Source: Escherichia coli (lineage in GTDB: Bacteria; Pseudomonadota; Gammaproteobacteria; Enterobacterales; Enterobacteriaceae). Taken from it: 64,000 nt of DNA. The first letter of the stretch is position 1. The number at the start of each line of letters is the position of its first letter. Positions 27,762 through 61,820 of this stretch are shown here, piece by piece. The position numbers were made by a program, and so were the translations under genes. Location of the stretch: assembly GCF_024223415.1 (NCBI RefSeq), contig NZ_CP100500.1. One strand, written 5' to 3'. The notes beneath the pieces were generated by a model, which did no database searches, was not told where the DNA came from, and was given only the letters and a program-made list of their open reading frames with translations.

Positions 27762-27847
27762 GACGTCATTATTTCCAACCGTATGACAGAAGAGCTTAAG
27801 GATGTGGCAGATAAGGTCTACACCCGCGATCTCTTTGGCAGTGACTA
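27762..27847 (+). pseudogene. remnant of a second ugd 3' end (last about 28 codons plus stop)
   Basis: Translates to [28 protein letters not shown], a variant of the C-terminus of the intact ugd (…[25 protein letters not shown]); coordinates approximate. Confidence 0.6.
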
Positions 27848-27991
27848 ACATCTTGTTATCAGGGCGATTTTCGCCCTGATTGTCTTATGTTTCCTTTGTA
27901 ATAATTCATTGTTTTTATCATTTATCCTATAGCATTCATGGCGATTATTGCTAAACTATGGCGACTTAAAATTATTTCGTCCGTTAGGGTA

Positions 27992-28972
27992 ATGATGAGA
28001 GTAGAAAATAATAATCTTTCTGGGCAAAACCATGATCCGGAACAGATTGATTTGATTGATTTACTGGTTCAACTATGGCGCGGCAAGATGACTATCATCA
28101 TTTCTGTCATTGTGGCTCTTGCCCTGGCTATAGGGTATCTGGCCGTTGCCAAAGAAAAGTGGACTTCAACAGCTATCGTTACTCAACCTGATGTGGGGCA
28201 AATCGCTGGTTATAACAATGCCATAAATGTGATTTATGGTTCGGCAGCGCCGAAAGTGTCTGAGATCCAGTCGATGTTAATTGGTCGTTTCAGCACGACA
28301 TTTTCTGCATTAGCAGAAACGCTGGATAATCAGGAAGAACCTGAAAAACTGACCATTGAGCCTACCGTTAAAAATCAGTCATTACCTTTAGCGGTTTCTT
28401 ATGTCGGTGAAACACCTGAAGGTGCGCAGAAACAGCTGGCGCAGTATATCCAGCAAGTTGACGACCAGGTAAATGAAGATCTGGAAAAAGACCTGAAAGA
28501 CAACATCGCGCTGCGTATGAAAAACTTGCAGGATTCGCTGAAGACCCAGGAAGTGGTTGCGCAGGAGCAGAAAGATCTGCGTATCCGTCAGATTCAGGAA
28601 GCGTTGCAGTATGCGAATCAGGCGCAGGTGACAAAGCCACAGGTTCAGCAGACTGAAGATGTGACGCAAGATACGTTGTTCCTTTTGGGGAGCGAAGCGC
28701 TGGAGTCGATGATTAAGCATGAGGCGACCCGTCCGTTGGTGTTCTCATCAAACTACTATCAGACACGTCAAAACCTGCTGGATATCGAAAGCTTAAAGGT
28801 TGATGATCTTGATATTCATGCTTACCGCTATGTAATGAAACCGACGTTACCTATTCGTCGCGATAGTCCGAAAAAGGCAATCACCTTGATTCTGGCGGTG
28901 CTGCTGGGCGGCATGGTTGGCGCGGGGATTGTGCTGGGGCGTAACGCTCTGCGTAATTACAACACGAAGTAA
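27992..28972 (+). CDS. wzzB: O-antigen chain-length determinant
   Basis: ORF 27938..28972; start at MMRVENNN gives 326 aa; two TM segments flank a periplasmic coiled-coil domain. Confidence 0.9.
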   Translation: MMRVENNNLSGQNHDPEQIDLIDLLVQLWRGKMTIIISVIVALALAIGYLAVAKEKWTSTAIVTQPDVGQIAGYNNAINVIYGSAAPKVSEIQSMLIGRFSTTFSALAETLDNQEEPEKLTIEPTVKNQSLPLAVSYVGETPEGAQKQLAQYIQQVDDQVNEDLEKDLKDNIALRMKNLQDSLKTQEVVAQEQKDLRIRQIQEALQYANQAQVTKPQVQQTEDVTQDTLFLLGSEALESMIKHEATRPLVFSSNYYQTRQNLLDIESLKVDDLDIHAYRYVMKPTLPIRRDSPKKAITLILAVLLGGMVGAGIVLGRNALRNYNTK

Positions 28973-28989
28973 TCTTTTCGGTTTTAAAG

Positions 28990-29027
28990 AAAAAGGGCAG
29001 GGTGGTGACACCTTGCCCGTTTTTTTT
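28990..29027 (+). terminator. putative intrinsic terminator after wzzB
   Basis: GC-rich hairpin (GGGCAGGGTG…CACCTTGCCC) followed by TTTTTTTT; a second palindrome (GGATGCGA…TCGCATCC) lies just downstream, facing the convergent his operon. Confidence 0.45.
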
Positions 29028-29068
29028 GCCGGATGCGACAACAATATCGCATCCGCTTACCCCGTAAC

Positions 29069-29673
29069 TCACTGATGCCGTTTACGCAGGTTCTCAATTA
29101 CCGTCGTTAAATCCAGATCCTGATCCTGTAACAGCACCAGCAGGTGATACATCAAGTCAGATGCCTCGTTGGTCAGTTCAAAGCGGTCATGCACCGTTGC
29201 GGCCAGTGCGGTTTCCACGCCTTCTTCGCCCACTTTCTGCGCAATGCGTTTGGTGCCGCTGGCATACAGTTTGGCGGTGTAGGAGGTTTCCGGGGCGGCA
29301 GATTTACGTTCGGCGAGTAGTTGTTCCAGTTGATACAGGAACAGCCACTGGTGAGCGGTGTCGCCGAAGCAGCTGCTGGTGCCTTTGTGGCAGGTTGGCC
29401 CGATGGGATTCGCCAGCACCAGTAATGTGTCGTTGTCGCAGTCCGGCGCAATATTTACTACGTTGAGGAAATTACCCGACGTTTCGCCTTTGGTCCACAG
29501 TCGCTGTTTAGTGCGCGAGAAGAAGGTGACTTTGCCGCTTTCGATGGTTTTGTCTAAGGCTTCCGGGTTCATATAGCCCAGCATTAGCACTTCGCCAGAT
29601 ACAGCGTGTTGCACAATCACCGGCATCAGACCGTCGGTTTTTTCCCAATCCAGTTCGCGACGTTGTTGTTCTG

Positions 29674-29680
<7 letters not shown>
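29069..29680 (-). CDS. hisI: bifunctional phosphoribosyl-AMP cyclohydrolase / phosphoribosyl-ATP pyrophosphatase
   Basis: 203-aa ORF recognised as HisIE; last gene of the his operon. Confidence 0.95.
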
Positions 29681-31758
<2,078 letters not shown>

Positions 31759-36102: not shown

Positions 36103-36149
36103 TTTCTTATTCCTCTTTAAACCTGTCTGAACCGTTATCAATCGCGCAA

Positions 36150-36190
36150 TAAAAAAGCCCCCGGAAGGTGATCTTCCGGGGGCTTTCTCA
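36150..36190 (-). terminator. his attenuator terminator hairpin
   Basis: On the minus strand, GCCCCCGGAAG-loop-CTTCCGGGGGC followed by a T-run, between hisL and hisG; coordinates approximate. Confidence 0.7.
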
Positions 36191-36247
36191 TGCGTTCATG
36201 CACCACTGGAAGATCTGAATGTCTTCCAGCACACATCGCCTGAAAGA

Positions 36248-36298
36248 CTAGTCAGGATGATGGTGATGATGGTGGTGTTTAAATTGAACGCGTGTCAT
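36248..36298 (-). CDS. hisL: his operon leader peptide
   Basis: Minus-strand mini-ORF translating to MTRVQFKHHHHHHHPD* (seven consecutive His codons), too short for the ORF track; coordinates approximate. Confidence 0.85.
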   Translation of the reverse strand: MTRVQFKHHHHHHHPD

Positions 36299-38965: not shown

Positions 38966-39231
38966 AGAAAAATTATTATGGCAAGCCTCTCATTCTCTTG
39001 TCATTTCCCCCCCATTTAGGCACAATGCGCCGCTGTCAAAAAATGACTAAAAACCGACGTTTCATCAGCGTCGGTTATTTTTTGCTTCAAACCAATCATT
39101 CATACCAAGAGGCCGGGCTTCGTACCGGATAGATATTTACTAAAAATCGACAGTTGTTGTCGCTGAGGAATCCAAAAAAATGGGGCAATTTTTTGCTTAC
39201 GCGACGGTTATCACCGTAAAGGAGAATGACC

Positions 39232-43648: not shown

Positions 43649-44815
43649 TTGAAACGCCGTCTTATTATTGCTGCTTCTTTGTTCGTTTTTAACTTATCGT
43701 CTGGTTTTGCGGCGGAAAACATTCCTTTTTCACCTCAGCCTCCAGAGATTCATGCCGGGTCCTGGGTATTGATGGATTACACCACCGGTCAGATCCTCAC
43801 CGCGGTTAATGAGCATCAACAGCGCAATCCCGCCAGCCTGACAAAGCTGATGACGGGTTATGTCGTGGATCGCGCTATCGATAGTCATCGCATTACGCCA
43901 GACGATATTGTCACCGTGGGGCGCAATGCGTGGGCGAAAGATAATCCGGTGTTTGTCGGTTCTTCACTGATGTTTTTGAAAGAGGGCGATCGCGTATCGG
44001 TACGTGATTTAAGCCGTGGTTTAATTGTGGATTCCGGAAATGACGCTTGTGTTGCTCTGGCTGACTATATTGCCGGTGGGCAACGGCAGTTTGTTGAAAT
44101 GATGAACAACTATGCCGAGAAGCTGCATCTCAAGGATACGCATTTTGAAACAGTGCATGGTCTGGATGCACCTGGCCAGCATAGCTCGGCTTATGATTTA
44201 GCTGTGCTTTCTCGCGCTATCATCCACGGCGAGCCCGAGTTTTATCATATGTACAGTGAGAAAAGTCTCACCTGGAACGGTATCACCCAGCAAAACCGTA
44301 ACGGGTTGTTGTGGGATAAAACCATGAATGTTGACGGCCTGAAAACGGGTCATACTTCTGGTGCCGGGTTTAATCTCATTGCTTCGGCTGTAGATGGGCA
44401 GCGTCGTCTCATTGCAGTGGTAATGGGGGCTGACAGTGCAAAAGGTCGTGAGGAAGAGGCAAGAAAATTACTGCGTTGGGGGCAACAAAACTTTACTACG
44501 GTGCAAATTTTGCACCGTGGGAAAAAGGTCGGAACGGAACGCATCTGGTATGGCGATAAAGAAAATATCGACCTGGGAACGGAACAAGAGTTCTGGATGG
44601 TGCTACCGAAAGCCGAAATTCCACATATCAAAGCCAAATATACCCTTAATGGTAAAGAGCTCACCGCGCCAATTAGCGCCCATCAGCGGGTAGGGGAAAT
44701 TGAACTTTACGACCGTGATAAACAGGTGGCGCACTGGCCGCTGGTTACCCTGGAATCTGTCGGGGAAGGCAGCATGTTTTCTCGCCTGAGTGATTATTTC
44801 CACCATAAGGCCTGA
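43649..44815 (+). CDS. dacD: D-alanyl-D-alanine carboxypeptidase (PBP6b)
   Basis: ORF 43643..44815 has a non-ATG start (TTG); signal peptide and SxxK motif (ASLTK). Confidence 0.85.
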   Translation: MKRRLIIAASLFVFNLSSGFAAENIPFSPQPPEIHAGSWVLMDYTTGQILTAVNEHQQRNPASLTKLMTGYVVDRAIDSHRITPDDIVTVGRNAWAKDNPVFVGSSLMFLKEGDRVSVRDLSRGLIVDSGNDACVALADYIAGGQRQFVEMMNNYAEKLHLKDTHFETVHGLDAPGQHSSAYDLAVLSRAIIHGEPEFYHMYSEKSLTWNGITQQNRNGLLWDKTMNVDGLKTGHTSGAGFNLIASAVDGQRRLIAVVMGADSAKGREEEARKLLRWGQQNFTTVQILHRGKKVGTERIWYGDKENIDLGTEQEFWMVLPKAEIPHIKAKYTLNGKELTAPISAHQRVGEIELYDRDKQVAHWPLVTLESVGEGSMFSRLSDYFHHKA

Positions 44816-44899
44816 CCTTTCTTTTGCAGCAGACTGGCAGGAGTGCGAGTCTGCTCGCATAATCAACACTCATTCCTTGTGGTTTTAATATTGCAACTA

Positions 44900-44919
44900 T
44901 ACTGTATATAAAAACAGTA
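44900..44919 (+). promoter_or_regulatory. LexA box (SOS operator) upstream of sbmC
   Basis: ACTGTATATAAAAACAGTA matches the CTGT-N8-ACAG consensus about 15 bp upstream of the sbmC start; coordinates approximate. Confidence 0.7.
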
Positions 44920-44933
44920 ATAATGGAGGCGTC

Positions 44934-45407
44934 ATGAACTACGAGATTAAGCAGGAAGATAAACGTACCGTTGCAGGTTTCCATCTCGTTGGCCCGTGGG
45001 AACAGACGGTAAAGAAAGGTTTTGAGCAGTTGATGATGTGGGTAGATAGCAAAAATATTGTGCCGAAGGAGTGGGTTGCTGTCTATTACGACAATCCGGA
45101 TGAAACACCCGCCGAAAAATTACGCTGCGACACCGTCGTGACGGTACCGAATAACTTTACGCTCCCCGAAAACAGTGAGGGCGTCATTCTGACAGAAATT
45201 TCAGGTGGTCAATATGCGGTGGCGGTGGCTCGTGTAGTCGGTGATGATTTTGCTAAACCCTGGTATCAGTTCTTTAATAGCCTCTTGCAGGACAGTGCTT
45301 ATGAAATGTTACCAAAGCCCTGCTTCGAGGTTTACTTGAACAATGGCGCGGAAGATGGGTACTGGGATATCGAAATGTATGTTGCGGTGCAGCCAAAACA
45401 TCACTAA
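44934..45407 (+). CDS. sbmC: DNA gyrase inhibitor SbmC (GyrI)
   Basis: 157-aa ORF recognised as SbmC. Confidence 0.9.
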
Positions 45408-47264: not shown

Positions 47265-47450
47265 TTAACAACAGCCTTCTTCTGTATGCAGCAAGGCAAA
47301 AAGTTCTGTAACTCCATTGTTATTAACTGCACTGGTTACTAACACGTTGTGCGCTCCAGCTTCCCGTAACCAACTTTTCACCAAAGATATTTGTTCCATG
47401 CTGGCTAAATCTGCTTTGGTTACTACTCCAATGACCGGGTGATTCATGGC
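47265..47450 (-). pseudogene. truncated EutP/PduV-like GTPase C-terminal fragment (yoeF-like)
   Basis: Only the C-terminal about 60 aa (…NHPVIGVVTKADLASMEQISLVKSWLREAGAHNVLVTSAVNNNGVTELFALLHTEEGCC) is EutP-like; the upstream part of ORF 47265..47621 is antisense to the IS66 remnant. Confidence 0.5.
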
Positions 47451-47499
47451 CCGGTAGGGCGTTTTTACCTCTAATTCCTGCTTCAGCACTGAGATTCCT

Positions 47500-47680
47500 G
47501 CTTGTTGCCGGAAAAGCAGGCACCTGCCGTCTGAACGGTATCGATCCGGAAGCGTATCTGCGCCATATTCTGAGCATACTGCCGGAATGGCCCTCCAACC
47601 GTGTTGACGAACTCCTGCCATGGAACGTAGTTCTCACCAATAAATAAGCGTCAATACGGTGCTCCGTTGACGCTTACTTT
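47500..47680 (+). mobile_element. IS66-family right-end remnant (transposase C-terminus plus terminal inverted repeat)
   Basis: Plus-strand translation …GIDPEAYLRHILSILPEWPSNRVDELLPWNVVLTNK* parallels the C-terminus of the intact transposase at 61821..63356; downstream …CGCTTAC matches the IS66 IR core; coordinates approximate. Confidence 0.55.
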
Positions 47681-47879
47681 AATCCGTTTTCTGAGCTTAG
47701 ATTTTTCTGTTCCTACCCAGACCGTGGATTTGGAATTCATTTTTTGTCAGGTCAATGCTAATCGTTAAAACGGCCATAACGCACCTCCACTGGAAGGTTT
47801 ATCAGTAATATCCTACCGTTGCTTCATGGTCGGGGCGTCCATTCCATTATTATCGGTTTTCCTTTCTGTTTATAAATGA

Positions 47880-47907
47880 AAACGCCAGCTGTATTCAGGC
47901 TGGCGTC
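47880..47907 (-). terminator. putative terminator downstream of yeeW
   Basis: Minus-strand hairpin CGCCAGC-loop-GCTGGCG followed by a T-run. Confidence 0.4.
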
Positions 47908-48061
47908 AGGGGAAATGAAGCCTGTTGAGTGAGATTCACCGGTTCTGGTGCAGAAGCTGCAGATGGCGCAGGGTAAGGACATCTTCTCTTGCCTGCTTAA
48001 TACAGGACAACAGTGCTGTTTCTGTGGTTAATGGCACTATACCCTGCATCACTGCATTGTC

Positions 48062-48256
48062 TTACAGCAACTGGTGAGGGCTGGCATAAGTTGCCGGTGT
48101 TTCGGTAGAGTCACGGTCATCCACCACGCGGAGTGAATAACCTTTTTCAGCGGCCTTATTAATCAGTTCAGTGATATTAACACCATCAATGTCAACGGCA
48201 ATGTGCCCCATATCCAGCGCCTGTACGTTAACGCTGTCGGCTTCCAGTGTCATCAT
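48062..48256 (-). CDS. yeeW: prophage protein YeeW
   Basis: 64-aa ORF recognised as YeeW; start overlaps the cbtA stop. Confidence 0.7.
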   Translation of the reverse strand: MMTLEADSVNVQALDMGHIAVDIDGVNITELINKAAEKGYSLRVVDDRDSTETPATYASPHQLL

Positions 48257-48626
48257 TTCGCCTCCGGATACTTACCCAGGGTAATGTTATTTACCGTTCT
48301 GTAATTGTCGCGGGTCATCAGGCCGGTCGCCCTGCGAGCCCGGAGGATATCGATGCTGTTTATTAACTGAGAGCGGGTACAGGCGCTGAATCCCGGCTGG
48401 TCGGTAGCACCAGCGCGTATTTTTCCACGAGAAAGTTCACCGCATCACACAGTGAAATGCCTGCCTCAATATGCTGCTCAATCACACGTTCATCGGCAAA
48501 AGGTGTGTCATTCAGTGTGAGGCCATAGTGCTGGTCCAGCAGTCGGGACAGCAGTATCTGCCAGATTTCAACAGGAGACGGGCGAGAACTGGTCGCCTGC
48601 CCGGGTAATACAGGTAATGTTTTCAT
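48253..48626 (-). pseudogene. cbtA: frameshifted type IV toxin cbtA (yeeV)
   Basis: ORF 48363..48626 matches CbtA through …[10 protein letters not shown] and then diverges; the expected C-terminus ([40 protein letters not shown]) reads in another frame. Confidence 0.7.
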
Positions 48627-48714
48627 ACTGAAGATTTTCCTGATATGCAGATATAAAAATGGAAAAGTGGCGTGGTGAAAACACCAGGCCGTAGCAGAAG
48701 GCTATTCTGGAGAG

Positions 48715-49083
48715 TTAATTTTTCATTTCGGGCGTCGGATAAACAGCCAGATAAACGTAACCACAACTGCTGAGGGTATCGGCTTTGCAGGTCAGCCCTT
48801 TTGCATACAGCGTGACGGTATGCTGATGGCGGGGATTCAGTTCACCGCTGGTGAGCATGAGTTCCAGTTGTTTCATCAGCAGCGGAAAGGCCTGGTCCAG
48901 GTGGTACGCATCTGCATCGCTGAACAGGCCTCTGATACCGGCGCGGTCGGCAAGGTAATGCAACCGGTTACCCTCCTGCACCAGACGTGCCCCGAAACAG
49001 GGCGTCACGGTGCAGGGCAGCCCCCACCAGGGGCGGTCGTGATTGTCGTCGGGAAGTGTTGTCCCGGGGAGTGTGTCTGACAC
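48715..49083 (-). CDS. cbeA: antitoxin CbeA (YeeU)
   Basis: 122-aa ORF recognised as YeeU/CbeA. Confidence 0.85.
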   Translation of the reverse strand: MSDTLPGTTLPDDNHDRPWWGLPCTVTPCFGARLVQEGNRLHYLADRAGIRGLFSDADAYHLDQAFPLLMKQLELMLTSGELNPRHQHTVTLYAKGLTCKADTLSSCGYVYLAVYPTPEMKN

Positions 49084-49156
49084 GATAAAATCCTTACAGA
49101 AAATCGGCTAAGAATGGTCCGGTAGTGGCGATAATTCTGCTCATCAGAATTCCCAC

Positions 49157-49378
49157 TCAGTTCAGGGTGACGCTCATCAGCCGGACATACGGACCAAAAC
49201 TGTCCTTACGGCGTTCAGCAAACACGGCCAGCACACCGGGAATATCCTGCACTTCACGACCGGTATACGCTTCAGCACTGCCGTGCCAGCGGTATTTACC
49301 GGTACAGAACGGAAAAAGACGGGATGTCGGATGTTGTTGGTGAATACGCATGGCTTCACCACGGGTGATAATTTTCAT
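49157..49378 (-). CDS. yeeT: prophage protein YeeT (DUF987)
   Basis: 73-aa ORF recognised as YeeT. Confidence 0.8.
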   Translation of the reverse strand: MKIITRGEAMRIHQQHPTSRLFPFCTGKYRWHGSAEAYTGREVQDIPGVLAVFAERRKDSFGPYVRLMSVTLN

Positions 49379-49440
49379 AATGGGATACCTCTGAAGACAG
49401 AAGATAAAAGTGAAAACAGGTGTGATGTGGTTGTGAAGGG

Positions 49441-49917
49441 TTAAAGCAGACCATGTTCGGCAAAGGAGAAAACCTGGTTGCCACCGACTATCAGATGGTC
49501 CGGCACCCGGATATCCACCAGGCCCAGTGCCTGTACCAGACGTTCCGTGATAAGGCGGTCTGCCTTACTGGGTGTGACTTCACCGGAGGGGTGATTGTGT
49601 GCCAGCACCACGGCAGCGGCATTGTGGTACAGGGCGCGTTTAATCACTTCCCGGGGATGGACTTCCGTGCGGTTGATGGTGCCGGTAAAGAGGGTTTCAC
49701 CGGCAATCAGTTGATTCTGGTTATTCAGATACAGCACCCGGAATTCTTCACGCTCCAGTCCCGCCATGTTCAGAATCAGCCATTCCCGTGCTGCACGGGT
49801 GGAGGTGAAGGCCACGCCGGGTTCATGAAGATGGCGGTCCAGGGTTTTCAGGGCCCGTTGAATGAGGCTGCGCTCGCCGGGCGTCATCTCTCCGGGCAGA
49901 AAGGAAAGTTGTTGCAT
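49441..49917 (-). CDS. yeeS: RadC-like JAB-domain protein
   Basis: 158-aa ORF with JAMM motif (HNHPSGEVTPSKADRLIT). Confidence 0.8.
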   Translation of the reverse strand: MQQLSFLPGEMTPGERSLIQRALKTLDRHLHEPGVAFTSTRAAREWLILNMAGLEREEFRVLYLNNQNQLIAGETLFTGTINRTEVHPREVIKRALYHNAAAVVLAHNHPSGEVTPSKADRLITERLVQALGLVDIRVPDHLIVGGNQVFSFAEHGLL

Positions 49918-49932
49918 TGTGCTTCTCTCAAT

Positions 49933-50412
49933 TCAGTCGATGATGCGCATAATGGCGCTGCATTCCGGATGCTGCAGGGCGTAATCCCGCAACCGGTAAT
50001 AATGGACCGTCATGGCATAATTCTCCGTACGACAGGCATGATGACTGTACGTCATCAGACAGGCGGCAATACCGGCGGCTTCCGGGCTCATTTCTGCGCG
50101 GTTACCGTTCATGGCATTGAACAGTACCCATGTTTCGTCATCATCGTCATCCGGTTCGGGTGCCATAAATGCCCCGCCGTTGTTCAGGGTGTACAGATTC
50201 CAGATACCACCGCAGTAGTCTTCGCACAGACGGTCCATCCAGCCGAAGACACGGGGCTCCAGGGTCACCCACTGTGGAATGAGGCCAAAATGCTGCGGCC
50301 AGAAGCTGATGCGCTGTTCATCAGGGACGAGGCTGGCAACCAACTGAGGCGGATTATTCTCTGGTGTTGTAGCTGAATAAATTGTGGGGGTATTCTGAGA
50401 AACGGTTTTCAT
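49933..50412 (-). CDS. antirestriction protein (ArdB/KlcA/YfjX-like)
   Basis: 159-aa acidic ORF (DDDDDE stretch) of the type found in CP4-type islands. Confidence 0.7.
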   Translation of the reverse strand: MKTVSQNTPTIYSATTPENNPPQLVASLVPDEQRISFWPQHFGLIPQWVTLEPRVFGWMDRLCEDYCGGIWNLYTLNNGGAFMAPEPDDDDDETWVLFNAMNGNRAEMSPEAAGIAACLMTYSHHACRTENYAMTVHYYRLRDYALQHPECSAIMRIID

Positions 50413-50493
50413 GAGATAACTCCTTAAATAACAAATAAATGTGTGTTTTTCAGGAACGAAAGCTGAATGATTCCCTCACTCAGGGAAACGGCA

Positions 50494-51315
50494 TCAGCGC
50501 AGGCTCTCCAGCATCGTTTCTGCCATCACCCACAATGCGCGATTGAGCTTAATGTCGGTATCAATGCTGTGAATGGCCCGGGTATGGATACGTTTTCCTT
50601 TTGCACTGCGACCGGAAATCCCGCCTTTCAGCATATTCTCCTGGATGGTCTGATATGCGCTCCACAGGTCCTTACCGTAATCCTCCCGGCGTCGCGGCGT
50701 CAGAATGTCGGCGGTGGTGACGGGCTGATGTTCGTCACCATAACGGTAAGTCAGTGCCGCCTGTGCCAGCGCCTGGCGTGCCGGTGGCGGCAGGACCAGC
50801 GACTGCATGGCATCACGCTTCTCCTCTATCCGGTCAAACACGCCCACCACCTCGTAAGCCCCTTCAATGACTCTGTCCACCACATTTCCCCGGTGCGGAA
50901 CACGCACTTCCCCCAGAGACTGACCACAGACGCAGCCGTTCTGGCAGACGAACCTGAAGTAACCCGGCAGCATCTGGTAGCTGGAGGTACCGTCATGAGA
51001 GTTGAGCAGAATAATTTCAGGGACATGTTCTCCGTTTATCTCTCCGGCCCGCCGCAGACGCAGCATGTGTTTGGTATATTCCCGGCGGCTCTGGTCGCGC
51101 ACACGGGTCTGGCAGGCGAAGAACGGCTGAAAGCCTTCCCGCTGCAGATTTTCCAGGACGGTAATGGTGGGAATGTACGCATACCGTTCACTGCGGGAGG
51201 TGTGCCGGTCTTCCCCAAAAATACTGGGTACATGGCGTATCAGTTCTTCATGTGTCAGCGGACGGTCACGGCGTATCTGGTTTGCAGCATAACCAAAACG
51301 ACTGGCTAATCGCAT
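50494..51315 (-). CDS. DUF932-family prophage protein (YfjQ/YafZ-like)
   Basis: 273-aa ORF of the family that follows the GTPase gene in CP4-type islands. Confidence 0.75.
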   Translation of the reverse strand: MRLASRFGYAANQIRRDRPLTHEELIRHVPSIFGEDRHTSRSERYAYIPTITVLENLQREGFQPFFACQTRVRDQSRREYTKHMLRLRRAGEINGEHVPEIILLNSHDGTSSYQMLPGYFRFVCQNGCVCGQSLGEVRVPHRGNVVDRVIEGAYEVVGVFDRIEEKRDAMQSLVLPPPARQALAQAALTYRYGDEHQPVTTADILTPRRREDYGKDLWSAYQTIQENMLKGGISGRSAKGKRIHTRAIHSIDTDIKLNRALWVMAETMLESLR

Positions 51316-51363
51316 ACTTTGCTCCTTATCGGTGGTTAAGATTTACTGGTGCAATAAATGAAA

Positions 51364-51392
51364 AAAGCCGCGTCTCCCGGAGAAGACGCGGC
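51364..51392 (-). terminator. putative rho-independent terminator after the secreted-protein genes
   Basis: Minus-strand hairpin GCCGCGTCT-loop-AGACGCGGC followed by TTTTTT. Confidence 0.45.
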
Positions 51393-51535
51393 CTGACGGG
51401 TGAAATGAATAAGGTTTATTGTCTGAGAGGCCTTTCACTGGCGAGCCACGCATTAAGCGGCTTTCCGGTAACAATGGCTGGGGCTGTATTTACCTTTGAT
51501 ATTAATAATGTGCAGAGAAACGCATGGTTTACTCC

Positions 51536-51946
51536 TTAGATTTTAAGTTTGTCCTGGGCTACAACGACAGGTTTTCCGGATGTGTCGATGACTCCTACCG
51601 TCGGTACGCCATTTTTGATTTCGAAGAACGGTTTGTTGCTACCTGAGCACAGTTGATTGTCCCCGTATTCAATCATTTGTGCTTTCCCGGTTTTCAGGTT
51701 AACTACCGAGACAGTGTAGTCGTAGCACCAGGCACCACCACGTTCAAGCACGAAAACATAGCTGTTATCTTTATAGTTGAACTGATTCTTTGTCTGGCAA
51801 TTCATACCGTCAATTTCGGTACAGGAAAACGCTTCTGTAGTATTAACGTATTTGATGTTATTTGGCAGTTTTACTTGTTTCGCAGTAGCGAAGACAGAGA
51901 ACAGAATAGTTACAGCAACGAGTAAAGTTTTGATAAAAGTTTTCAT
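51536..51946 (-). CDS. hypothetical secreted protein
   Basis: 136-aa ORF with a typical Sec signal peptide (MKTFIKTLLVAVTILFSVFATA), four Cys, low GC. Confidence 0.5.
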   Translation of the reverse strand: MKTFIKTLLVAVTILFSVFATAKQVKLPNNIKYVNTTEAFSCTEIDGMNCQTKNQFNYKDNSYVFVLERGGAWCYDYTVSVVNLKTGKAQMIEYGDNQLCSGSNKPFFEIKNGVPTVGVIDTSGKPVVVAQDKLKI

Positions 51947-51961
51947 GATAGACTCCTTAAA

Positions 51962-52450
51962 TTAGTTAAACGCAGCTACGTAGTTTTTCACCAGATACGC
52001 GAATTCATGCACGCCAATTTCACCGAACCAAACCAGGTAGGCCGGGTCATCTAAACCAAAGTAACGGTAGCCAACAACTTCATGGGTTTTTGGGTTATAG
52101 AGTGTTACGATAAAGTCCCAGCCGCAGGTATTGGCTTTGCAACCGTCGCCCTGGAGCCAGACTGTATCGTTAATGTTTACTGGCGTGATACCTCCACCAG
52201 GGCCATCCATATAGCCGCCTTTACCGAACATGCCGCTCAGTCCGACCGGTTTTAATGCTTTGTCGATAGCGGCTTTGTAGGTAGCGTCACCTTCGTACAA
52301 CTCGTACGTTGATGGACACGCTCCAGGTTGTTCAGCCCAGGCTTCCGGGTTACAACTAAGTGCTTGTTTTACGGTAGCCGCTTCTGCGTTAAAGTTAAAG
52401 CCCGTGAACAGAACCGCCAGAAATAACATAAGGGTATGTAAACGTTTCAT
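51962..52450 (-). CDS. hypothetical secreted Cys-rich protein
   Basis: ORF 51962..52753; probable start at MKRLHTLMLFLAVLFTGFNFNAEA (signal peptide) gives about 163 aa; six Cys in the mature part. Confidence 0.5.
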   Translation of the reverse strand: MKRLHTLMLFLAVLFTGFNFNAEAATVKQALSCNPEAWAEQPGACPSTYELYEGDATYKAAIDKALKPVGLSGMFGKGGYMDGPGGGITPVNINDTVWLQGDGCKANTCGWDFIVTLYNPKTHEVVGYRYFGLDDPAYLVWFGEIGVHEFAYLVKNYVAAFN

Positions 52451-52780
52451 TGTAAATATTCTTCCGTTGTAAATGGCGCTGGAAAATTTCTCATCAGTGA
52501 AACCTTCCGGAAGTTTCCCCCCCTTGTATGATGTATATCGCCAGTATTTTATTTCATCCCGGCTGTAATTTTTATATTCCCCGGCACGTGCAATAACGCT
52601 GACCAGAGATATAAGGCTCATTAATAACTTTACAGGTAATTTCATAATTAAATTTCCAGTGAGTGAATTGACAGGTGAGGGGTAAAACTTTCTCTCAGGT
52701 AATATATATCTGAAAATATTTTCAATAACACCAGACAGGAAAAACACCACCACAGGCGGTGGCGTTTCTTTGGGGCGTCT

Positions 52781-53851
52781 TTATTTAATCCGGGCCATCG
52801 CGTTTCTCAGTGCCAAATCTGCCTCTTCCGTTATATCCAGGCTTTTCTGCAATACCGCCTCTGACCGGGTCAGTGCCTGACGTGCTGCCAAGGGGTTCCG
52901 GATATGCTCCATCGTCAGCATCGTGTCTTCATAGCCCTGCTGACGCCAGATGTCGGTATGTGCCGATGTAAAACTGAGCAGACCGCCACTTTTGCCTTCT
53001 TCCCCTGTGTGTTTCAGCCTTTTCCGGGGACGGATTTCAAGGATTGTGGTGTCCGGAAAAGCCCGGCGATCCCATAAAGAACCGTCACTCAGATGCGTCA
53101 CAATCACCATATTGCATCCGGCATCGACCAGAGGCGTTACAGGGGTATTTCCCTGCATATTTCGCCATCCTCCCATCCCACCATCACCGAACATTGTCCC
53201 CTGAACCTCACGGGGATGGAACAACAGGGGCAGTGCGGCTGACGCAAGCAGAGCCTCTTTCTGCTGTCCGCGGGGCAGACTCTGGATATGCTGAAAAACG
53301 GCGTTTTTCGTGGTTCCGGCACCCAGTTCAGCACGAATGCAGTCAATAATATCCTGCATGCCCCCTTCTGTGGGGTACAGCGACACATACAGCGGTAGCC
53401 CGTCTGCCAGAGCATCAGTATCAAGATAATGATCCATCAGCGCTGTCAGAGGCTCATCTGACAACAGCGGCTGAGCCATCGGATTGTCGAAGCCGTTGAT
53501 TATCGATATATGGCGAAGAAGTATCGTAAGCAGTGCTCCTGCACGTCCGGGGATCTGGCAGAGGTTCATTGCCTGGAACAATTTTTTCAGCAATGAAAAG
53601 TAAACCGATCGGTTTACCGACAGCACCTGATTATTCCCCAGATGATCCCAGAGCGCCTCCAGGCGTACGGCAGCTTCTGACAGATCGGGAGAGGCCGCGA
53701 TAATGGCACCATTGAATGCGCCAATGCTGGCCCCTGAAACCATGCTGATCTGTGTACCACACTCTGCCAGTGCCTTAACCACTCCCGCCTGATAAGCGCC
53801 CACCGCCCCGCCACCGGACAGCACCAGCCCCGTTTTCATTTCTGTACTCAT
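52781..53851 (-). CDS. patatin-like phospholipase
   Basis: 356-aa ORF with glycine-rich oxyanion loop (SGGGAVGAYQAG), GxSxG nucleophile motif (GASIG) and catalytic DGG (FGDGGMGG); no signal peptide; start overlaps the upstream gene's stop. Confidence 0.8.
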   Translation of the reverse strand: MSTEMKTGLVLSGGGAVGAYQAGVVKALAECGTQISMVSGASIGAFNGAIIAASPDLSEAAVRLEALWDHLGNNQVLSVNRSVYFSLLKKLFQAMNLCQIPGRAGALLTILLRHISIINGFDNPMAQPLLSDEPLTALMDHYLDTDALADGLPLYVSLYPTEGGMQDIIDCIRAELGAGTTKNAVFQHIQSLPRGQQKEALLASAALPLLFHPREVQGTMFGDGGMGGWRNMQGNTPVTPLVDAGCNMVIVTHLSDGSLWDRRAFPDTTILEIRPRKRLKHTGEEGKSGGLLSFTSAHTDIWRQQGYEDTMLTMEHIRNPLAARQALTRSEAVLQKSLDITEEADLALRNAMARIK

Positions 53852-54753
53852 GCAGCCCCCTTCTGAAATATTTCATCGACCATACTTTCAGAGAGGCGTT
53901 CTGCAGAGCAGAGGCGAGGCATGCGAACCGGTAAGTGTTCTGCAGCCTGCGTGGTTGACCAGATCACCGGATGCTGCTCTTCACTGCACCAGTCTCCCAG
54001 CCAGTTAATCGCGTCATGCCACTCGTTATCTGCCTGCTCCCGGCCCTGACCACCAAGCCAGTCCAGAGTGTTCAGACGCACGGTTGCACTACCGCCACTC
54101 TCCTGTGCCATCTGCGTTAATGCTTTATGTCTGAGAATATCCAGTAGCTGGTTAACCTGGCCTGTTTCGCTCTGACGTATCACATCACCAAACGCGCCCC
54201 AGCGAAGCTCTTCAAGTGCCACATAACAACGTCCGGCAGGGGAAAATGACGCATATCGCCCGGCGCTCCACCATGAGAATATCTGCTCAAGATGTAACTG
54301 CGCCCGCTGAACCTGGTCAACACGGTGGAGTTTTTCTTCAAGATGATTCAGTTTATGGTGAACCTGATCGGCCAGGGTGAGTAACTGCTCCCGCGTATCT
54401 GCGGAATAATGCGCCAGCCTGGCTGTATCACTGACCAGTGAACTGACCCTGTCGTTTACCCGGGTAATCGCGTAGTTTGTGGTGGCAAGTGACGTTGTCA
54501 TCTCCGTCAGCCAGCGCAGGGACGCCTCAACGCCCTGTGCAAGCGACGCATTGATGGCATTCTGCCGTGCAGCGCCTTCGCCGGTCAGCCCCTCTTTTAA
54601 ACGCCGGAAGAACGTGCGCTCTCCGGCCGTGCGGATATGCTCCTGTGCAACATCGATTCCGTTTGCGAAATCAACCACAAATTTTTCAGGAAGACAGGTG
54701 AGTACCTGACATACCCGGTTATCAGCAATTTGTTGAATAAATGGTGAAGTCAC
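53848..54753 (-). CDS. hypothetical protein (partner of the dynamin-like GTPase)
   Basis: 301-aa ORF, predicted alpha-helical, GTG start overlapping the stop of the upstream gene (GTGA) with a GGAGA RBS about 10 nt upstream. Confidence 0.55.
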   Translation of the reverse strand: MTSPFIQQIADNRVCQVLTCLPEKFVVDFANGIDVAQEHIRTAGERTFFRRLKEGLTGEGAARQNAINASLAQGVEASLRWLTEMTTSLATTNYAITRVNDRVSSLVSDTARLAHYSADTREQLLTLADQVHHKLNHLEEKLHRVDQVQRAQLHLEQIFSWWSAGRYASFSPAGRCYVALEELRWGAFGDVIRQSETGQVNQLLDILRHKALTQMAQESGGSATVRLNTLDWLGGQGREQADNEWHDAINWLGDWCSEEQHPVIWSTTQAAEHLPVRMPRLCSAERLSESMVDEIFQKGAA

Positions 54754-57146
54754 AGCATTGTCTCCAGCTCTTCCCTCAGCGCCTTACTGTCAGTAATGAG
54801 CTCAGGAACCCTTTCATTTAATGCCTGAAGTCGCCCGGTAAGTCGTTCCTGCGCCTGCTGATCGCGTTTATGATCTTCAGAGCTCTGAATCAGCGTGTTA
54901 CGCAGTTGTTCAACTTTCTCCCTGAATGCGCAGAAAAAGGCATCGATTTCCTGGCGGACGGGCTGGTTAATATCCTGCTCAATGGATGCCTGCAGCTCCC
55001 CGAAATATGCCCGGGTCAGTGACATAACTTCCTCTCTGACCTTGTTGATATTGATCACGCTGCGACTCACATCCTCGTCATAGTTTTCCCAGCCCAGGTC
55101 ACTGGTGCCAAACCATCGACAAACGGTTCCCCATACGCCACTCTGCCGACGGCGACGGGTGACGGTCTCCGTTCTTTCCTCCATAAGCGCACTCAGATTT
55201 ATTTTTACCGCGAGCCGGGTCTGTAACTGGCTGACTGCCGGAAAACTGATTTTTACGGTAAAGCCCTCATCCTCCAGGCGGGCATTGATGCGACCGGCAA
55301 TGTTTTCTGTGGCGTACAGGGCCGTGCCACGAAAACCTGTTTCAATCCCGCTGACGATTTTCTCCAGCTCAGGCCGGAACTGTGCTTCAGCCTCACGGTG
55401 CAGGCTGGTCACGGTCGATTCGATTTGCGTCATCAGTTCAAGGGCTTCCCTGCGATCACTGAATTTTATTTCGGGGCTGTCCGGGGCAAAATCTCGTTTC
55501 CTGTAATCCTCCCGGCCCTGGTTGTTGATACCGGACCATTGAGAAATTTTCCCCCATAATCCGGACTGAGACCTTCGTTGTTCTGCGTCTTCTTCCTCCA
55601 GCATTTGCTGTTCTTTGCGTTTACCGCTTCTGAAATAGTCATTCAGCTCCTCTTCCAGTGAGGTGCAGACCCCCGTCAGTAATTCCCGGGTTTTAGTATC
55701 GATCTCCTCCATGGCCATTCTGACATCAGTGGTCATCTGCTCCTGACAGTCCGCGATTTCCCGGATATCCGCAAGCAGGCTGGTGATATGCGACTGCAGT
55801 GACTGAATGCTTTGCTGTAGCCCCTGATGGCGTAACAACAGGTATTCACTGATATTTTCTGCATTCTGCATCAGTTTTGCGGCGGCAGAGTCAACCGCCA
55901 GTGCCGCAGCTCTGGAATGTGAGCTCTGTATGACTTCCGTTATCAGTTGATCGATAAGTGAGCCTTCCCACAGGTCTGTCGCCCCTTCAGTTGCCAGTTC
56001 ACTGTCTTTACAGACGTATTCTTTTTTCATGCAACCGAAGGCACCTCTGATAAAATCATCGACCCAGGCTTCATCAACAGGAAGGGTTCCGTTTTTCCGT
56101 AACTCATGAAGCGCACGGTTAGCCAGGTATGCCTGGCGTGAGGATCCGGGATAAACGCGGGAGGCGGGCAGCACATCGCTGTTCAGCATTGCCGGAACTT
56201 TCTGGCGTACGGCATCTGCCCCATCGCCATTGCGGTCTTTCTCATCAAATTTATTGACCAGTACAAACAGGCGGCCGGCTGATACGTCAGCAATGGCATT
56301 AAGCTCTTTACGGACGTCTTCATCCGCTTTTGAGTTCATCTGGGTGTAATCCATCACAGCCAGAACCGCAGAGGCTTTCTGCAGTTGATCCCGCATCATC
56401 ACTTCCATCTGCGGTTGTCCGGCCTCATTAGGGCCGGGGGTATCCAGCAGTGTGAGTGTTCCCTGGCATGCATCCATCCCCACCAGATGGCTGAATTCCA
56501 CGTCGATCACCGGCAGTTTCTGCACTTCTGCGTATTCATCAAAAGGAAATTCAGTCCCCATTGCCGCAGCAAGACGAACCAGATCGTTTAACGATGCCAG
56601 TCCGGTAAAGATTTCCTCCTCCCCGTGGTATTCATTTTTGAGCCAGCCATCATCCGTCAGAATATCCAGCAGTTCGCGGGTATCCCCGGTTTGCTGCAGG
56701 GTCTGTGCGACCTGCTGTCCTGCCGGGGTGGCGAGTTTTTCCTGCAGTGTGATTAATAAATTGCGGACAGGCTGAATATGTTCCAGATGGAGAACCGGCT
56801 CAGTTTTTCCGGGAACGTGGCGGATGAGCGTCGGTACAGAGGTCATGGGGCGGTTACGGTTAGGCAGAATTTCCTGCCCCACAATGGCGTTGATGGTGGT
56901 TGATTTGCCTGCTTTCATCGTGCCGACAACAGCCAGCACCATCTCCCTGCGGGCGGTTTTGATTTGTTCGCCCTCCAGCTCCTCAATTCTTTTCAGTGCT
57001 TTCTGTTTATCAAAAAGCAGTCTGTTTTCGTTCTTACTGTCAGATAACACATCTGGCTCCTCAACCATTTGCCGGAGCAGATTAATGTTCAGTTGCAAAA
57101 GTCGGTCGGCTTCATCACAAAGCAGGGCGATGTTCTTTTCGTGCAT
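54750..57146 (-). CDS. dynamin-like large GTPase
   Basis: 798-aa ORF with G1 P-loop (GTMKAGKST), switch-I Thr, G3 (LLDTPG) and G4 (LVNKFD) in the N-terminal third, then long helical/coiled-coil regions. Confidence 0.8.
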   Translation of the reverse strand: MHEKNIALLCDEADRLLQLNINLLRQMVEEPDVLSDSKNENRLLFDKQKALKRIEELEGEQIKTARREMVLAVVGTMKAGKSTTINAIVGQEILPNRNRPMTSVPTLIRHVPGKTEPVLHLEHIQPVRNLLITLQEKLATPAGQQVAQTLQQTGDTRELLDILTDDGWLKNEYHGEEEIFTGLASLNDLVRLAAAMGTEFPFDEYAEVQKLPVIDVEFSHLVGMDACQGTLTLLDTPGPNEAGQPQMEVMMRDQLQKASAVLAVMDYTQMNSKADEDVRKELNAIADVSAGRLFVLVNKFDEKDRNGDGADAVRQKVPAMLNSDVLPASRVYPGSSRQAYLANRALHELRKNGTLPVDEAWVDDFIRGAFGCMKKEYVCKDSELATEGATDLWEGSLIDQLITEVIQSSHSRAAALAVDSAAAKLMQNAENISEYLLLRHQGLQQSIQSLQSHITSLLADIREIADCQEQMTTDVRMAMEEIDTKTRELLTGVCTSLEEELNDYFRSGKRKEQQMLEEEDAEQRRSQSGLWGKISQWSGINNQGREDYRKRDFAPDSPEIKFSDRREALELMTQIESTVTSLHREAEAQFRPELEKIVSGIETGFRGTALYATENIAGRINARLEDEGFTVKISFPAVSQLQTRLAVKINLSALMEERTETVTRRRRQSGVWGTVCRWFGTSDLGWENYDEDVSRSVININKVREEVMSLTRAYFGELQASIEQDINQPVRQEIDAFFCAFREKVEQLRNTLIQSSEDHKRDQQAQERLTGRLQALNERVPELITDSKALREELETML

Positions 57147-57363
57147 TATTTAACCTTCCTAAGACGCATTTTCATGACAACCACGGAGGAGGTCATTTAC
57201 TACAAACGATCGTTTATAACGATCGATATGATAGTAACGATCGATACATTCTATTAACTTGAGAAACACAACGCAAGGGGACAACCCGGGTATGGCTGCG
57301 TTTGCATAGTGTTTTCATGGAGTTAAAAATCTGTAACAACAGCCTGGTACATCACCACCGGGT

Positions 57364-58280
57364 TCAGAAGAAAATCCAGTTCCATACCGCGCGGGCAACA
57401 GAGACCACCGAGTCACGGACGGCGCGCAGAACCGTGCGTGCAACAGAGGCAATGCAGACGCTCTCCGCCGTGTCAAATATCCGGTCCACCGCACCGGTAA
57501 ACTGTTCACGGGCCTGAGACCGGACAGACTCCGTGCGCAGCTCGTCCTGCAGGCGGGTCATCAGGGGACTGGCGGCATGGTCGGGAAGTGCTGTCATGAG
57601 CGCACTGACCAGCGTATCCAGTTCCCAGCCGGTGCGGGCCGATACGGCAACAACCCGATGTACGGGCCGGAACAGACGGAATACCGCCTCCGTTTTTTCG
57701 CGAATGTTCTGTGCCTGTGCGGGAGAAGGCTGAATACCGGCCATATCCCATTCATGGCAGGGCTCCGTTTTATCGGCCTGCATCACCACAAACAGTACCC
57801 GCTGATGTCCCCGGTGCAGGATGTGTCGCCAGAAATACTCATCCACAGACAGGGCACGGTCATCGGCTTTAATCAGCCACAGTACCAGGTCCAGTTCGAG
57901 CAGAATGTCACGGTACAGGGCTTCATACTCTGCATCCCTGTCCCGGCTCTCGCCCACCCCACCCCGGGCAGGTCAGTGATAACCATGCTGTGACCATGGC
58001 CATTCAGACGGAAGCGCTGCACTTCCCGGGGGCCGGCGTGAACATCACTGACCGGGGTGACCTCCCCCTGAAACAGCGCATTACAGAGTGAGGATTTACC
58101 GGCCCCGCTTTTACCCATAATGCCAGGCACGGGTTCGTGACTGGTGAGTTTGCGCAGATGTTCCAGGATGTGACGGGAAAGTGAGTAAGGCAGGGAGGAG
58201 AGCGGTTTTTCAATTGCCTCAATGGCATCAGACGGATTCATACATGTATTCCCGGTGAAAAAAGACAAAACCCCGCGCAC
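57364..58280 (-). pseudogene. YeeP/YfjP/YkfA-family small GTPase, frameshifted
   Basis: N-terminal part with P-loop (GKSGAGKSS) and DLPGVG in ORF 57873..58280; C-terminal part in overlapping ORF 57364..57957 in another frame; break coincides with a tandem ACCCC-ACCCC repeat. Confidence 0.7.
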
Positions 58281-58324
58281 CGGAAAGGTGGCGGGGGATT
58301 CACGGAAATAATATCTGTCTGAAA

Positions 58325-59488
58325 TTATCTGGAATCGATTTGGCTGTTCTGCCTGGTTGCCACCAAATCATGGTACGCCTGCTCAATCATTTCATTCAGC
58401 AGTTTTTTTGGGAGGACACCACGACTTCGGGCAATACTTTCAAGCTGTTTGTGGATTTTTCCGGACAGTTTCAGAGGGACGGAACCATCAGCACGTTCAT
58501 CACGCCTTTTTTGTTGCTCCCGGGCACTTTTCAGCTCATCAAGAAGAATCGCTTTATGCTGAATCCTGGGGGCCTGGAAGGAGACCTGCGTAAACTTCGC
58601 TCTGTTCCGTCTGGGATTACTTTCCAGTAAAAACTGTACCTGTTGCTCATTCCAGCCCTCCCAGTTATCAAACGTGGCGCAGGCAAACCAGTATTTCTGC
58701 TCCGGGGTAAGGGGATTCAGCGGGGTTCCCACACACCGGACCTGCATGGCGTTCCATAACCAGTCACACTGTTCACTGTCCCTGCTGTCCACCCACGAAA
58801 AGGGGGAGGGGTAATCATTGTTTATGCTGGCCCATTCAGAGAATACTGAGTTGATAATCGTCCTCGTAGCCTCTGGTCCGGATTTCAGCAGGTAACTGGA
58901 GCAGAACCATATAATTTCACGGTAGATTTTATCCGGATGCACGGTGCGCATCGGCTTTTCTCTGGGACCGGCAATCTTCGGTTGCGATGGAAACCCCGTG
59001 GCAAACCGCAGATGTTCCGGGGGCATTCCTGAACGTTTTTCAGGAATGGGTGTGAGTCCTGCGTTTCTGGTCTTTTCCGCTTGTCCGGTATTGCCTCCGG
59101 CCGGAGTGTTGTCGGGAGTATCTTCCGGAGGCGAGGTGTTTTCATTAGTTGGGGGAACAACAGCAGAACTGTCCATCTCCGGAATGGGTTGAGGGGCATA
59201 ATCACTGTGGTAGCCAGGGGAAAGCGTTAAGTCCCGAAGGGTGACATCAGGTTCCGGGCAGTGAGTGCCACCGGGAGTGAACGGGAGTTGTTGCTTTTGG
59301 GAGAAAAATGTATTGTGAATGCGGGTATACAGCTGGAACAGAAAAAAATAAGATGCCCGTGGTTCTTTTTTTAACCACTGTGTATATTCCTCTATGGCAC
59401 CGAGCTGTTGTTTGTGCCGTTTTACAGCATCGATATACGGACAGCTGGTGCAGATATCATCCAGTTCCTTTCCCACAATACACCTCAC
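58325..59488 (-). CDS. hypothetical island protein with Pro-rich linker
   Basis: 387-aa ORF: Cys-containing N-terminal region, a low-complexity Pro/Thr-rich segment, then a conserved-looking C-terminal domain; function and true start unknown. Confidence 0.45.
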   Translation of the reverse strand: MRCIVGKELDDICTSCPYIDAVKRHKQQLGAIEEYTQWLKKEPRASYFFLFQLYTRIHNTFFSQKQQLPFTPGGTHCPEPDVTLRDLTLSPGYHSDYAPQPIPEMDSSAVVPPTNENTSPPEDTPDNTPAGGNTGQAEKTRNAGLTPIPEKRSGMPPEHLRFATGFPSQPKIAGPREKPMRTVHPDKIYREIIWFCSSYLLKSGPEATRTIINSVFSEWASINNDYPSPFSWVDSRDSEQCDWLWNAMQVRCVGTPLNPLTPEQKYWFACATFDNWEGWNEQQVQFLLESNPRRNRAKFTQVSFQAPRIQHKAILLDELKSAREQQKRRDERADGSVPLKLSGKIHKQLESIARSRGVLPKKLLNEMIEQAYHDLVATRQNSQIDSR

Positions 59489-60952
59489 CTGCTTTTCTCA
59501 CATTTGCAGATTTTAAAAAAGCAAACAAAAACCTCCGTACATGATGTACAGAACAATCTACCAGGTAGTGGCGTCAGAAAACCCCCGGGCCGCCTGCACT
59601 TTCCAGAATGCGCCGGTTATGAAAAACCGGAAATTCAGTCTCTGTTGTAAGATGTACCCTCTGATACTACGTTTTCTCTGTGTATTTAACTCACTGTATT
59701 TATTGTCTTTTTAAGCTTGACTGATATTCTCCGGTCATAGTGTGCCGGATATACATCCCGTAAACTTCTCATTTTTATATAAAAATACCTGCACTCTCTT
59801 CAGCGCATCTGTCTCCTTTAAGTAAAAAATGTTTTCACGTATTGCTGTAAATTCATTTTAAATCAGTATATTACCTTGATATTGCTGTCTCCTGGTTTGA
59901 TGCGTAATCGTTCTGCCTTTCTGGATGATTCTGGTGCTTCCGGGTGCATTCTCCTCTGCACATGCAACAGTTCGTCATCGCCACGCTCCCAAAAAGCATA
60001 TAAAAACGAATCGAATTTGATATTTTTTTCAATCGTTTTTCATAGGAATTTCGTAGGGTATTCTCCGCTATAACCTCCATATTTGCTGCCTTTTTCTCCA
60101 TAAATCGTATGCAATATAGCCTGTCTGTCAAGACCTCTTCTCTGCTGTTGAGGAGACGATCTCATTTTTGGTCTTTTCCGGGAGAGAGGCTGTCAGATGA
60201 GCGAGCCGGATATACTGTCAGAGGTACACCCCGTAGCAGACCTGTGCTCCCATTTCCGCGATCCGGAACCAACAACACCCTACGGTTAATACCATTTGAA
60301 GCGTCAGGTACTGCAGGAAGTTCCCCCCTGCGCGGACATCGGTTCCTGCCGACATCTCACAATACGGCCAGACTGTCATGCAGTAACACCCGCATGCGGT
60401 CTGCGGTTTTAAGCGCACTCTCCCGTTTTCAGTGCACCGATAATGCGTCATAGTAAGTCTGGGGGAAGTTACGGAATGCCTGTTAAGTGGTGCCGTGGGT
60501 GGAGACAGCTTACTTTTCTACAGCAACTGCAGTCATTCAGGATGATCAGGAGATATTCTGTCAATGTCACGATCCTGCCATTTTCGTACCCGCTAAGATA
60601 CTTCCGTTACTGATGCTGTCCGCTTTTCACCATTTCATCCTCACTGACAGGCGTTGCGTTTTGGGTCATCACCACAGCTTTACGTTTCTCTTTTAACCGG
60701 TAACGCTCTCCTTTGATATTCAGCGTGGTTGAGTGATGCAGCAGTCAATCCAGGAGCGCTGTTGTCCGGCAACCACCATATCAACTTCTTCCCGGGTGTG
60801 GCGGAGAGGTGGTATCCTGGCTGAGTTTCGAAGCGAACCGTTCTTTTTGACGGGCGCATTTTACGTCCGGGCTGAATGTAGTAACGCGGCATGGAACGTC
60901 GGCCCGTATACCATTGCCTTAATCTCCGCAAAGATAACCTCGTCATTCCGGA

Positions 60953-60960
60953 CATTCTCT
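60953..60960. repeat. 8-bp target-site duplication (CATTCTCT), left copy
   Basis: Same octamer directly abuts both ends of the IS66-family element; coordinates approximate. Confidence 0.6.
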
Positions 60961-61043
60961 GTAAGCGTCGTCTGAGTACCGTCTGGTCCCGAATCCAGGA
61001 TCCTGTAACTTAAGCACCCACTTATTTTGCAGGTGGACACCTC

Positions 61044-61427
61044 ATGCGCGCTAAAGAAAGACTTCCCCGGAAACACTATTCCCCTGAATTCAAAATGGAA
61101 CTGGTCAGGCTGGCTCTTGAAGAAGAAGGCAGTATTGCCGCACTGGCCCGGAAACATGACGTCAATGATAACCTGCTCTTTAAATGGATAAGGCTCTGGC
61201 AGCGTGAAGGGCGGGTCTGTCGGCCCCGAAAAAACTCATCGTCGCTTCCTGCCCTGATACCCGTGCAGCTTCAGGCGGGCTCTTCTCTCCCAACCTTCGA
61301 ACTACCATCCTGCTCTCCTCCCGCTACCTGCCACATAAAATGTCGGGGAGGAGAAATAACACTGACTCATCCCTCTGCTGAACTCATGAGCACTGTCCTG
61401 CGCGAACTGATGCGGGGGCCTGTATGA
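61044..61427 (+). CDS. IS66-family accessory protein (orfA, HTH)
   Basis: 127-aa ORF with N-terminal transposase-type HTH (RKHYSPEFKMELVRLALEEEGSIAALARKHDVNDNLLFKWIR). Confidence 0.8.
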   Translation: MRAKERLPRKHYSPEFKMELVRLALEEEGSIAALARKHDVNDNLLFKWIRLWQREGRVCRPRKNSSSLPALIPVQLQAGSSLPTFELPSCSPPATCHIKCRGGEITLTHPSAELMSTVLRELMRGPV

Positions 61428-61771: not shown

Positions 61772-61820
61772 CGCTCTTTATCCTGGTTGTCGCAGAATAA
61801 GCCTGGTAAAATACAGGCTT

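Follow-up and report, generated by a model that had tools for sequence, protein, structure and literature searches.

A conserved LexA operator, identical to that of K-12, predicted at the sbmC (gyrI) promoter of an Escherichia coli chromosome

Repression of the SOS genes by LexA is lifted when the repressor cleaves itself, a reaction stimulated by RecA. One of the genes concerned is sbmC (gyrI), which codes for a DNA gyrase inhibitor and which we take to be a LexA target in ChIP-chip. Its product shields gyrase from microcin B17 and from other gyrase poisons, and its overexpression leads to phleomycin resistance. In E. coli, sbmC is a member of the SOS regulon (PMC6590174); its transcript goes up over a time course following DNA damage (PMC11002266), and among UV-induced genes it is the top-scoring member for the SOS motif (PMC3009722 Table 4). 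The K-12 gene is induced 5.7-fold by AZT and shows a 9.5-fold dependence on cleavable LexA in the comparison with lexA3; its box has a heterology index of 2.8, the fifth lowest of 31 classic SOS genes, for which the range is 1.8-13 (PMC11228462 Table 1). In Salmonella, the LexA box of sbmC lies 21 nt from the ATG (PMC8072944). The SOS control that a first-pass annotation of the present DNA took as known for the gene is thus well founded in the K-12 literature.

LexA is nevertheless not the sole control of sbmC: a kinetic study of the regulon excluded the gene for its biphasic response, with an alternative sigma factor suspected and induction in stationary phase cited (PMC5999292). A further input is the form of cAMP-CRP control that depends on Sxy and acts at sites called CRP-S. 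At sbmC this control needs CRP, cAMP and Sxy; Sxy induces the gene 6-fold, and a class I mechanism has been reported (PMC1635313).

The window analysed here, a stretch of 64 kb of E. coli DNA, carries sbmC on the plus strand at 44934-45407. The 157 aa that the ORF encodes are recognised along their whole length (residues 1-157 of 157) by the NCBIfam equivalog model NF007451, at 302.8 bits where the cutoff is 179 (E = 5e-91), in agreement with the RefSeq annotation. Upstream and co-directional is dacD (43649-44815, + strand, from the ORF list and annotation), with its stop codon 84 nt before the box considered below. The gene order sbcB-dacD-sbmC-yeeA-tmaR is the same in the window and in K-12. 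A 701-bp region of the locus is matched in 5,418 of 5,426 complete E. coli genomes, where the annotation reads dacD and then sbmC, and the whole window is nearly identical to E. coli Combat11I9 (NZ_CP021726.1). A Shine-Dalgarno sequence, GGAGG, can be read at 44925-44929 (+ strand) and is kept in an alignment of 26 genera.

The 20-mer TACTGTATATAAAAACAGTA occupies 44900-44919 on the plus strand, and its 3' end is 14 nt from the sbmC ATG at 44934, in keeping with the earlier placement of a box shortly before the start of that gene. The first-pass annotation quoted the site correctly as a 19-mer, ACTGTATATAAAAACAGTA, which covers 44901-44919, and gave it an interval one base wider, 44900-44919; the additional T at 44900 is part of the canonical 20-bp box. 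The pattern then proposed, CTGT-N8-ACAG, matches exactly at 44902-44917, with the left half-site core CTGT at 44902-44905 and the right half-site core ACAG at 44914-44917 (both + strand), and this is its single occurrence in the 64-kb window. The core by itself was dropped as evidence: it is no rarer than chance, with 0.73 matches expected per window and at least one match in 49 of 100 shuffles. The full 20-mer and a position weight matrix (PWM) were therefore relied on.

Against the consensus TACTG(TA)5CAGTA, 18 of the 20 positions agree, and both mismatches, at positions 12 and 14, fall in the spacer. When up to three mismatches to this consensus are allowed, one site is found in the window, as opposed to none in 100 shuffles. 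The PWM was made from the LexA boxes of 16-17 further UV-induced E. coli genes (PMC3009722 Table 4); sbmC itself was left out, and a stricter version also excluded the identical site of umuD. On this matrix the sbmC box reaches 26.6-28.8 bits, its recomputed heterology index is 0.6-2.4, and it ranks first to third of 18 validated sites, whose leave-one-out scores run from 4 to 28 bits; far from falling short of validated operators, as a spurious site might, it stands at the top of their range. At any one position, 26.6 bits corresponds to P = 2.3e-10, so that 3e-5 such sites are expected per window; under intergenic base composition the value for the box is P = 7e-10. In 100 Markov-simulated windows the scores went no higher than 16.4 bits. 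The PWM scan of the 64-kb window found no second LexA box near sbmC; the runner-up sites, at 14494, 59743 and 48050, reach 11-12 bits, which is chance level.

Conservation was followed across the Enterobacteriaceae by a scan of one genome per species, which yielded 80 sbmC loci with protein identities of 60-99%, from Escherichia, Citrobacter, Salmonella, Enterobacter, Lelliottia, Kluyvera, Klebsiella, Raoultella, Atlantibacter and other genera. A LexA-type box stands 14-24 nt before the sbmC ATG in 77 of these 80 species-level loci; likewise in 77 of 80, the best PWM site of the 150 nt upstream is also the best of the whole 3.5-kb locus. The 77 boxes comprise 49 distinct 20-mers. Over 76 distinct orthologous sequences, box positions T4 and G5 (44903-44904) and C16, A17 and G18 (44915-44917) are invariant, and T6, A7, T8 and T19 nearly so, while the flank positions -6 to -20, in columns anchored on the box, carry about 0 bits. 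The right arm reads ACAG in 72 of the 77 loci. The left half-site is degenerate in particular clades: its arm is CTGT in 41 loci, GTGT in 22 (a clade of Enterobacter, Lelliottia and Leclercia) and ATGT in 11 (of the Klebsiella/Raoultella type).

Within E. coli itself some variation is seen. Part of the species (loci L083 A31 and L002, for example) carries the box variant TACTGTATATAAAAACAGTG, in which position 20 is changed from A to G, so that the box ends in CAGTG and is followed by TTAATGG. For the 40-mer that ends at the box, 4,117 of 5,426 E. coli genomes contain an exact match of 28 bases or more; about 1,300 genomes therefore differ somewhere within 44880-44919.

To see what such an operator might do, the promoter around it has to be placed. 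In the intergenic alignment of 26 genera a conserved block, GAGTGCGAGTCTGCTC(A/G)CATAAT, occupies 44841-44863 of the window. Its sequence in the window is GAGTGCGAGTCTGCTCGCATAAT, and its conservation across genera is as strong as that of the LexA box; in E. coli genomes it is present in single copy. The block contains the published CRP-S site, for Sxy-dependent cAMP-CRP (44841-44862, + strand; PMC1635313), with a core of the form TGCGA-N6-TCGCA. The core, TGCGAGTCTGCTCGCA, lies at 44844-44859 (half-sites 44844-44848 and 44855-44859); in the 22-bp CRP-like palindrome, position 6 is C and position 17 is G, as in CRP-S sites. In a clade of the Klebsiella/Raoultella/Pseudocitrobacter type the first half-site is TGTGA, the canonical CRP form, and this suggests that CRP control there may be independent of Sxy.

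Downstream of the CRP-S site, the putative -35 hexamer is TTGTGG (44877-44882, + strand); it opens with a conserved TTG (44877-44879), whose T and G at 44878-44879 hardly vary across the 26 genera. A 17-bp spacer separates it from TACTGT (44900-44905), probably the -10 hexamer, the other candidate being TATACT (44898-44903). The pattern T-A-T-A-x-T is conserved at box positions -2 to +4, at a spacing that suits both the TTG and a class I CRP site, and under either choice the -10 region (44898-44905, + strand) coincides in part with the left arm. For a class I CRP site with its centre at 44851.5, +1 is expected near 44913, about 61.5 bp downstream of that centre, and tiling arrays put the 5' end of the UV-induced transcript at about 44908, with an intergenic resolution of 7 nt (PMC3009722). 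From these two lines of evidence together we infer that transcription starts within the spacer of the box.

With the putative -10 and start site both within the box, occlusion of the promoter by LexA, relieved by RecA-stimulated self-cleavage, is the likely mode of repression. That is, in the undamaged cell a LexA dimer would sit on both half-sites, CTGT and ACAG; as the box spans the -10 hexamer and the start site, bound LexA would bar RNA polymerase; on DNA damage, RecA filaments would stimulate LexA to cleave itself, leaving the operator empty and sbmC free to be transcribed. The class I CRP-S site, about 49 bp upstream, would activate the same promoter through cAMP-CRP and Sxy. Since that promoter is, according to the literature, both activated through CRP-S and induced in stationary phase, LexA would hold a veto over both.

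A second perspective keeps LexA on the box and changes what it does there. LexA would then be a roadblock to transcription arriving from farther upstream, either from a promoter CTGGCA-18-CATAAT at 44834-44863 or by read-through from dacD, rather than an occluder of the start site. A scan with the sigma-70 consensus does find no promoter at the box and calls the upstream site, with 9 of 12 matches; both of its hexamers are conserved across genera, and if transcription did begin from it, the box would be at roughly +30 to +50. The conserved block is, however, accounted for by the CRP-S site, TGCGA-N6-TC(G/A)CA, of class I and with a start inside the box, and tiling arrays place the 5' end at about 44908 rather than about 44870. 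This explanation is accordingly improbable. The readings of CTGGCA-18-CATAAT as a real promoter, as a sigma-54 promoter or as a MerR-type element were all dropped, as the block is the published CRP-S site; for sigma-54, the spacing from GG to GC does not fit, judged by sequence.

A third perspective dispenses with LexA: what is conserved would be core promoter elements (a -10, a start site, an AT-rich discriminator), or else an RNA or DNA hairpin. The putative -10 hexamer does coincide with the left arm, and the arms do form a 6-bp stem in the predicted fold. Yet invariance extends to the right arm, CAG(T), which is beyond the putative start, where promoters impose no such constraint, and a start within the box would leave half of the stem untranscribed; the sequence is, moreover, the same as that of the umuD operator. 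The left arm changes from C to G in Enterobacter and from C to A in Klebsiella, never with compensation on the right, so pairing is not what is selected, and the one-sided changes therefore speak for a protein-binding site. Conservation for promoter function or for pairing is thus very improbable as the whole explanation, and a hairpin or terminator reading of the box is ruled out by the lack of compensatory changes across species. The fold of the 125-nt region has z = -2.5, with only a weak 6-bp stem at the box. Its strong hairpin is elsewhere, at 44825-44859 (GCAGCAGACUGG...AGUCUGCUCGC), soon after the dacD stop; it has no U-tract and overlaps the CRP-S palindrome. This hairpin is probably not itself under selection; its left arm is not conserved in Salmonella.

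The idea that the palindrome arose by chance, the promoter region being AT-rich, and has no regulatory role deserves almost no credence: a bare core turns up in about half of the shuffled windows, but the full site has P = 2e-10 per position, recurs in the same location in 77 of 80 species, amid randomised flanks, and goes with LexA-dependent expression in K-12.

The reading we prefer, with a probability of roughly 0.96, is that 44900-44919 serves the E. coli sbmC (gyrI) promoter as its single LexA operator, taken jointly with occlusion by LexA and activation through CRP-S. A LexA operator of the Gammaproteobacterial kind is recognised by its core, its fit to consensus and PWM, its location in a promoter and its conservation among orthologues, and the sequence displays each of these, as expected of such an operator. 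Damage induction dependent on LexA is documented for K-12, with the identical operator; for the present strain both that induction and the binding of LexA at 44900-44919 are predicted. The statement of the first-pass annotation that core regulation is intact holds to the same extent, as one about sequence. From the intact operator, expression of sbmC that is damage-inducible rather than constitutive is predicted.

The three exceptions among the 80 loci are Escherichia sp. MOD1-EC7003, Klebsiella michiganensis DSM 25444 and Intestinirhabdus alba. In MOD1-EC7003 (locus L081, 1440-1760), an 18-nt deletion takes away the right half of the LexA box (TACTG-ATTGGAGG), and sbmC is a pseudogene, cut after about residue 82 and fused to yeeA sequence; this is a joint decay of operator and gene. 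In K. michiganensis (locus L077, 10-1478), comparison with K. oxytoca places the insertion of a reverse transcriptase element at box position 19/20. The element encodes a reverse transcriptase of 469 aa (Pfam RVT_1, with a YADD motif) in the same orientation as sbmC, and by virtue of this ORF, which is the evidence for a retroelement, it looks like a group II intron. In I. alba (locus L076, 1315-1500), the box, TACTGTACAGGAATACAGTG, scores 16.9 bits and is displaced to 166 nt before sbmC; it is separated from the ribosome-binding site by a GC-rich, MITE-like insert, about 150 bp long, whose ends are inverted (CCTTAACCGG...CCGGTTAAGG). At the Rfam gathering threshold, neither this locus nor that of K. 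michiganensis gave a group II intron RNA.

A further interruption is found within E. coli: strain FCI29 (NZ_CM172720.1; locus L082, 101-120) carries the ISL3-like element ISEc53 inside the box, after position 14, between TACTGTATATAAAA and GGGTCTTCC. The point corresponds to 44913/44914 of the window; the operator is split and the promoter parted from sbmC. With FCI29, K. michiganensis and I. alba there are three independent insertions at or adjoining the box, and one might suppose that the sbmC operator region is a recurrent landing site for mobile DNA, which rewires the SOS control of a gyrase inhibitor. On these three cases we regard that generalisation as improbable. If it is more than coincidence, there would be natural strains in which sbmC, and hence tolerance of gyrase poisons, is uncoupled from LexA.

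The remainder of the window offers some observations of its own. The O-antigen cluster (12000-30000, from galF/JUMPstart to gnd-ugd-wzzB) has a match at 80% coverage or more in only 2 of the 5,426 complete genomes of E. coli, those of Combat11I9 and 181.1. Next nearest are clusters of O74 type, covered to 45%, and a rare serogroup is thus indicated. Downstream of tmaR, a CP4-44-like genomic island occupies 47300-64000; it includes yeeW, a frameshifted cbtA toxin gene with an intact cbeA antitoxin gene, yeeS/yeeT, an antirestriction gene and an IS66 element, and it also encodes a patatin-like phospholipase and proteins of the RdcB and dynamin families. At Rfam gathering score there are an algC RNA motif (4031-4080, + strand), JUMPstart (13684-13722, + strand), a His leader (36149-36272, - strand) and the sRNA STnc240 (39011-39085, + strand); no tRNA genes were found in the 64-kb window.

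The SOS box of sbmC is already known and offers no novelty. Its use here is as a positive control: the DNA is an ordinary E. coli chromosome in which the sbmC SOS operator is unchanged, and a strong LexA box of this kind can be recognised by eye from sequence.

Three described systems frame the locus. The nearest is sbmC of K-12 MG1655 itself (NC_000913.3), the comparison that the first-pass annotation had proposed, and it upholds the identification: the 20-mer is identical, and the upstream alignment is gapless, with 3 differences in 171 bp. One of these, at 44890 (T in K-12, A here), is in the promoter spacer; the others, at 44920-44921 (TC in K-12, AT here), are the first two bases past the box; none is inside it. 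The two loci have in common the 14-nt distance from box to ATG, the neighbours dacD-sbmC-yeeA and the upstream CRP-S block.

The CRP-S promoters of ppdD and yrfD form the second comparison. They share with the sbmC block the TGCGA core; among the promoters of PMC1635313, a strong LexA operator over the core promoter is seen here for sbmC only.

The third is the umuDC operator of E. coli, which has exactly the same 20-mer, TACTGTATATAAAAACAGTA, as sbmC (PMC3009722 Table 4), in unlike flanks and an unlike promoter context. The heterology index of the umuD box is among the lowest in the regulon (PMC11228462). The published indices differ in spite of the identical 20-mers, 2.1 for umuD and 2.8 for sbmC (PMC11228462 Table 1). 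The mismatch probably comes from an asymmetric matrix read on opposite strands; our unsymmetrised PWM parallels it, giving the box 28.8 or 23.2 bits according to the strand. AZT induces umuD 56-fold, as against 5.7-fold for sbmC (PMC11228462 Table 1). With the same box and such unlike induction, it is the promoter and its co-regulators, not the box, that set the amplitude of the response.
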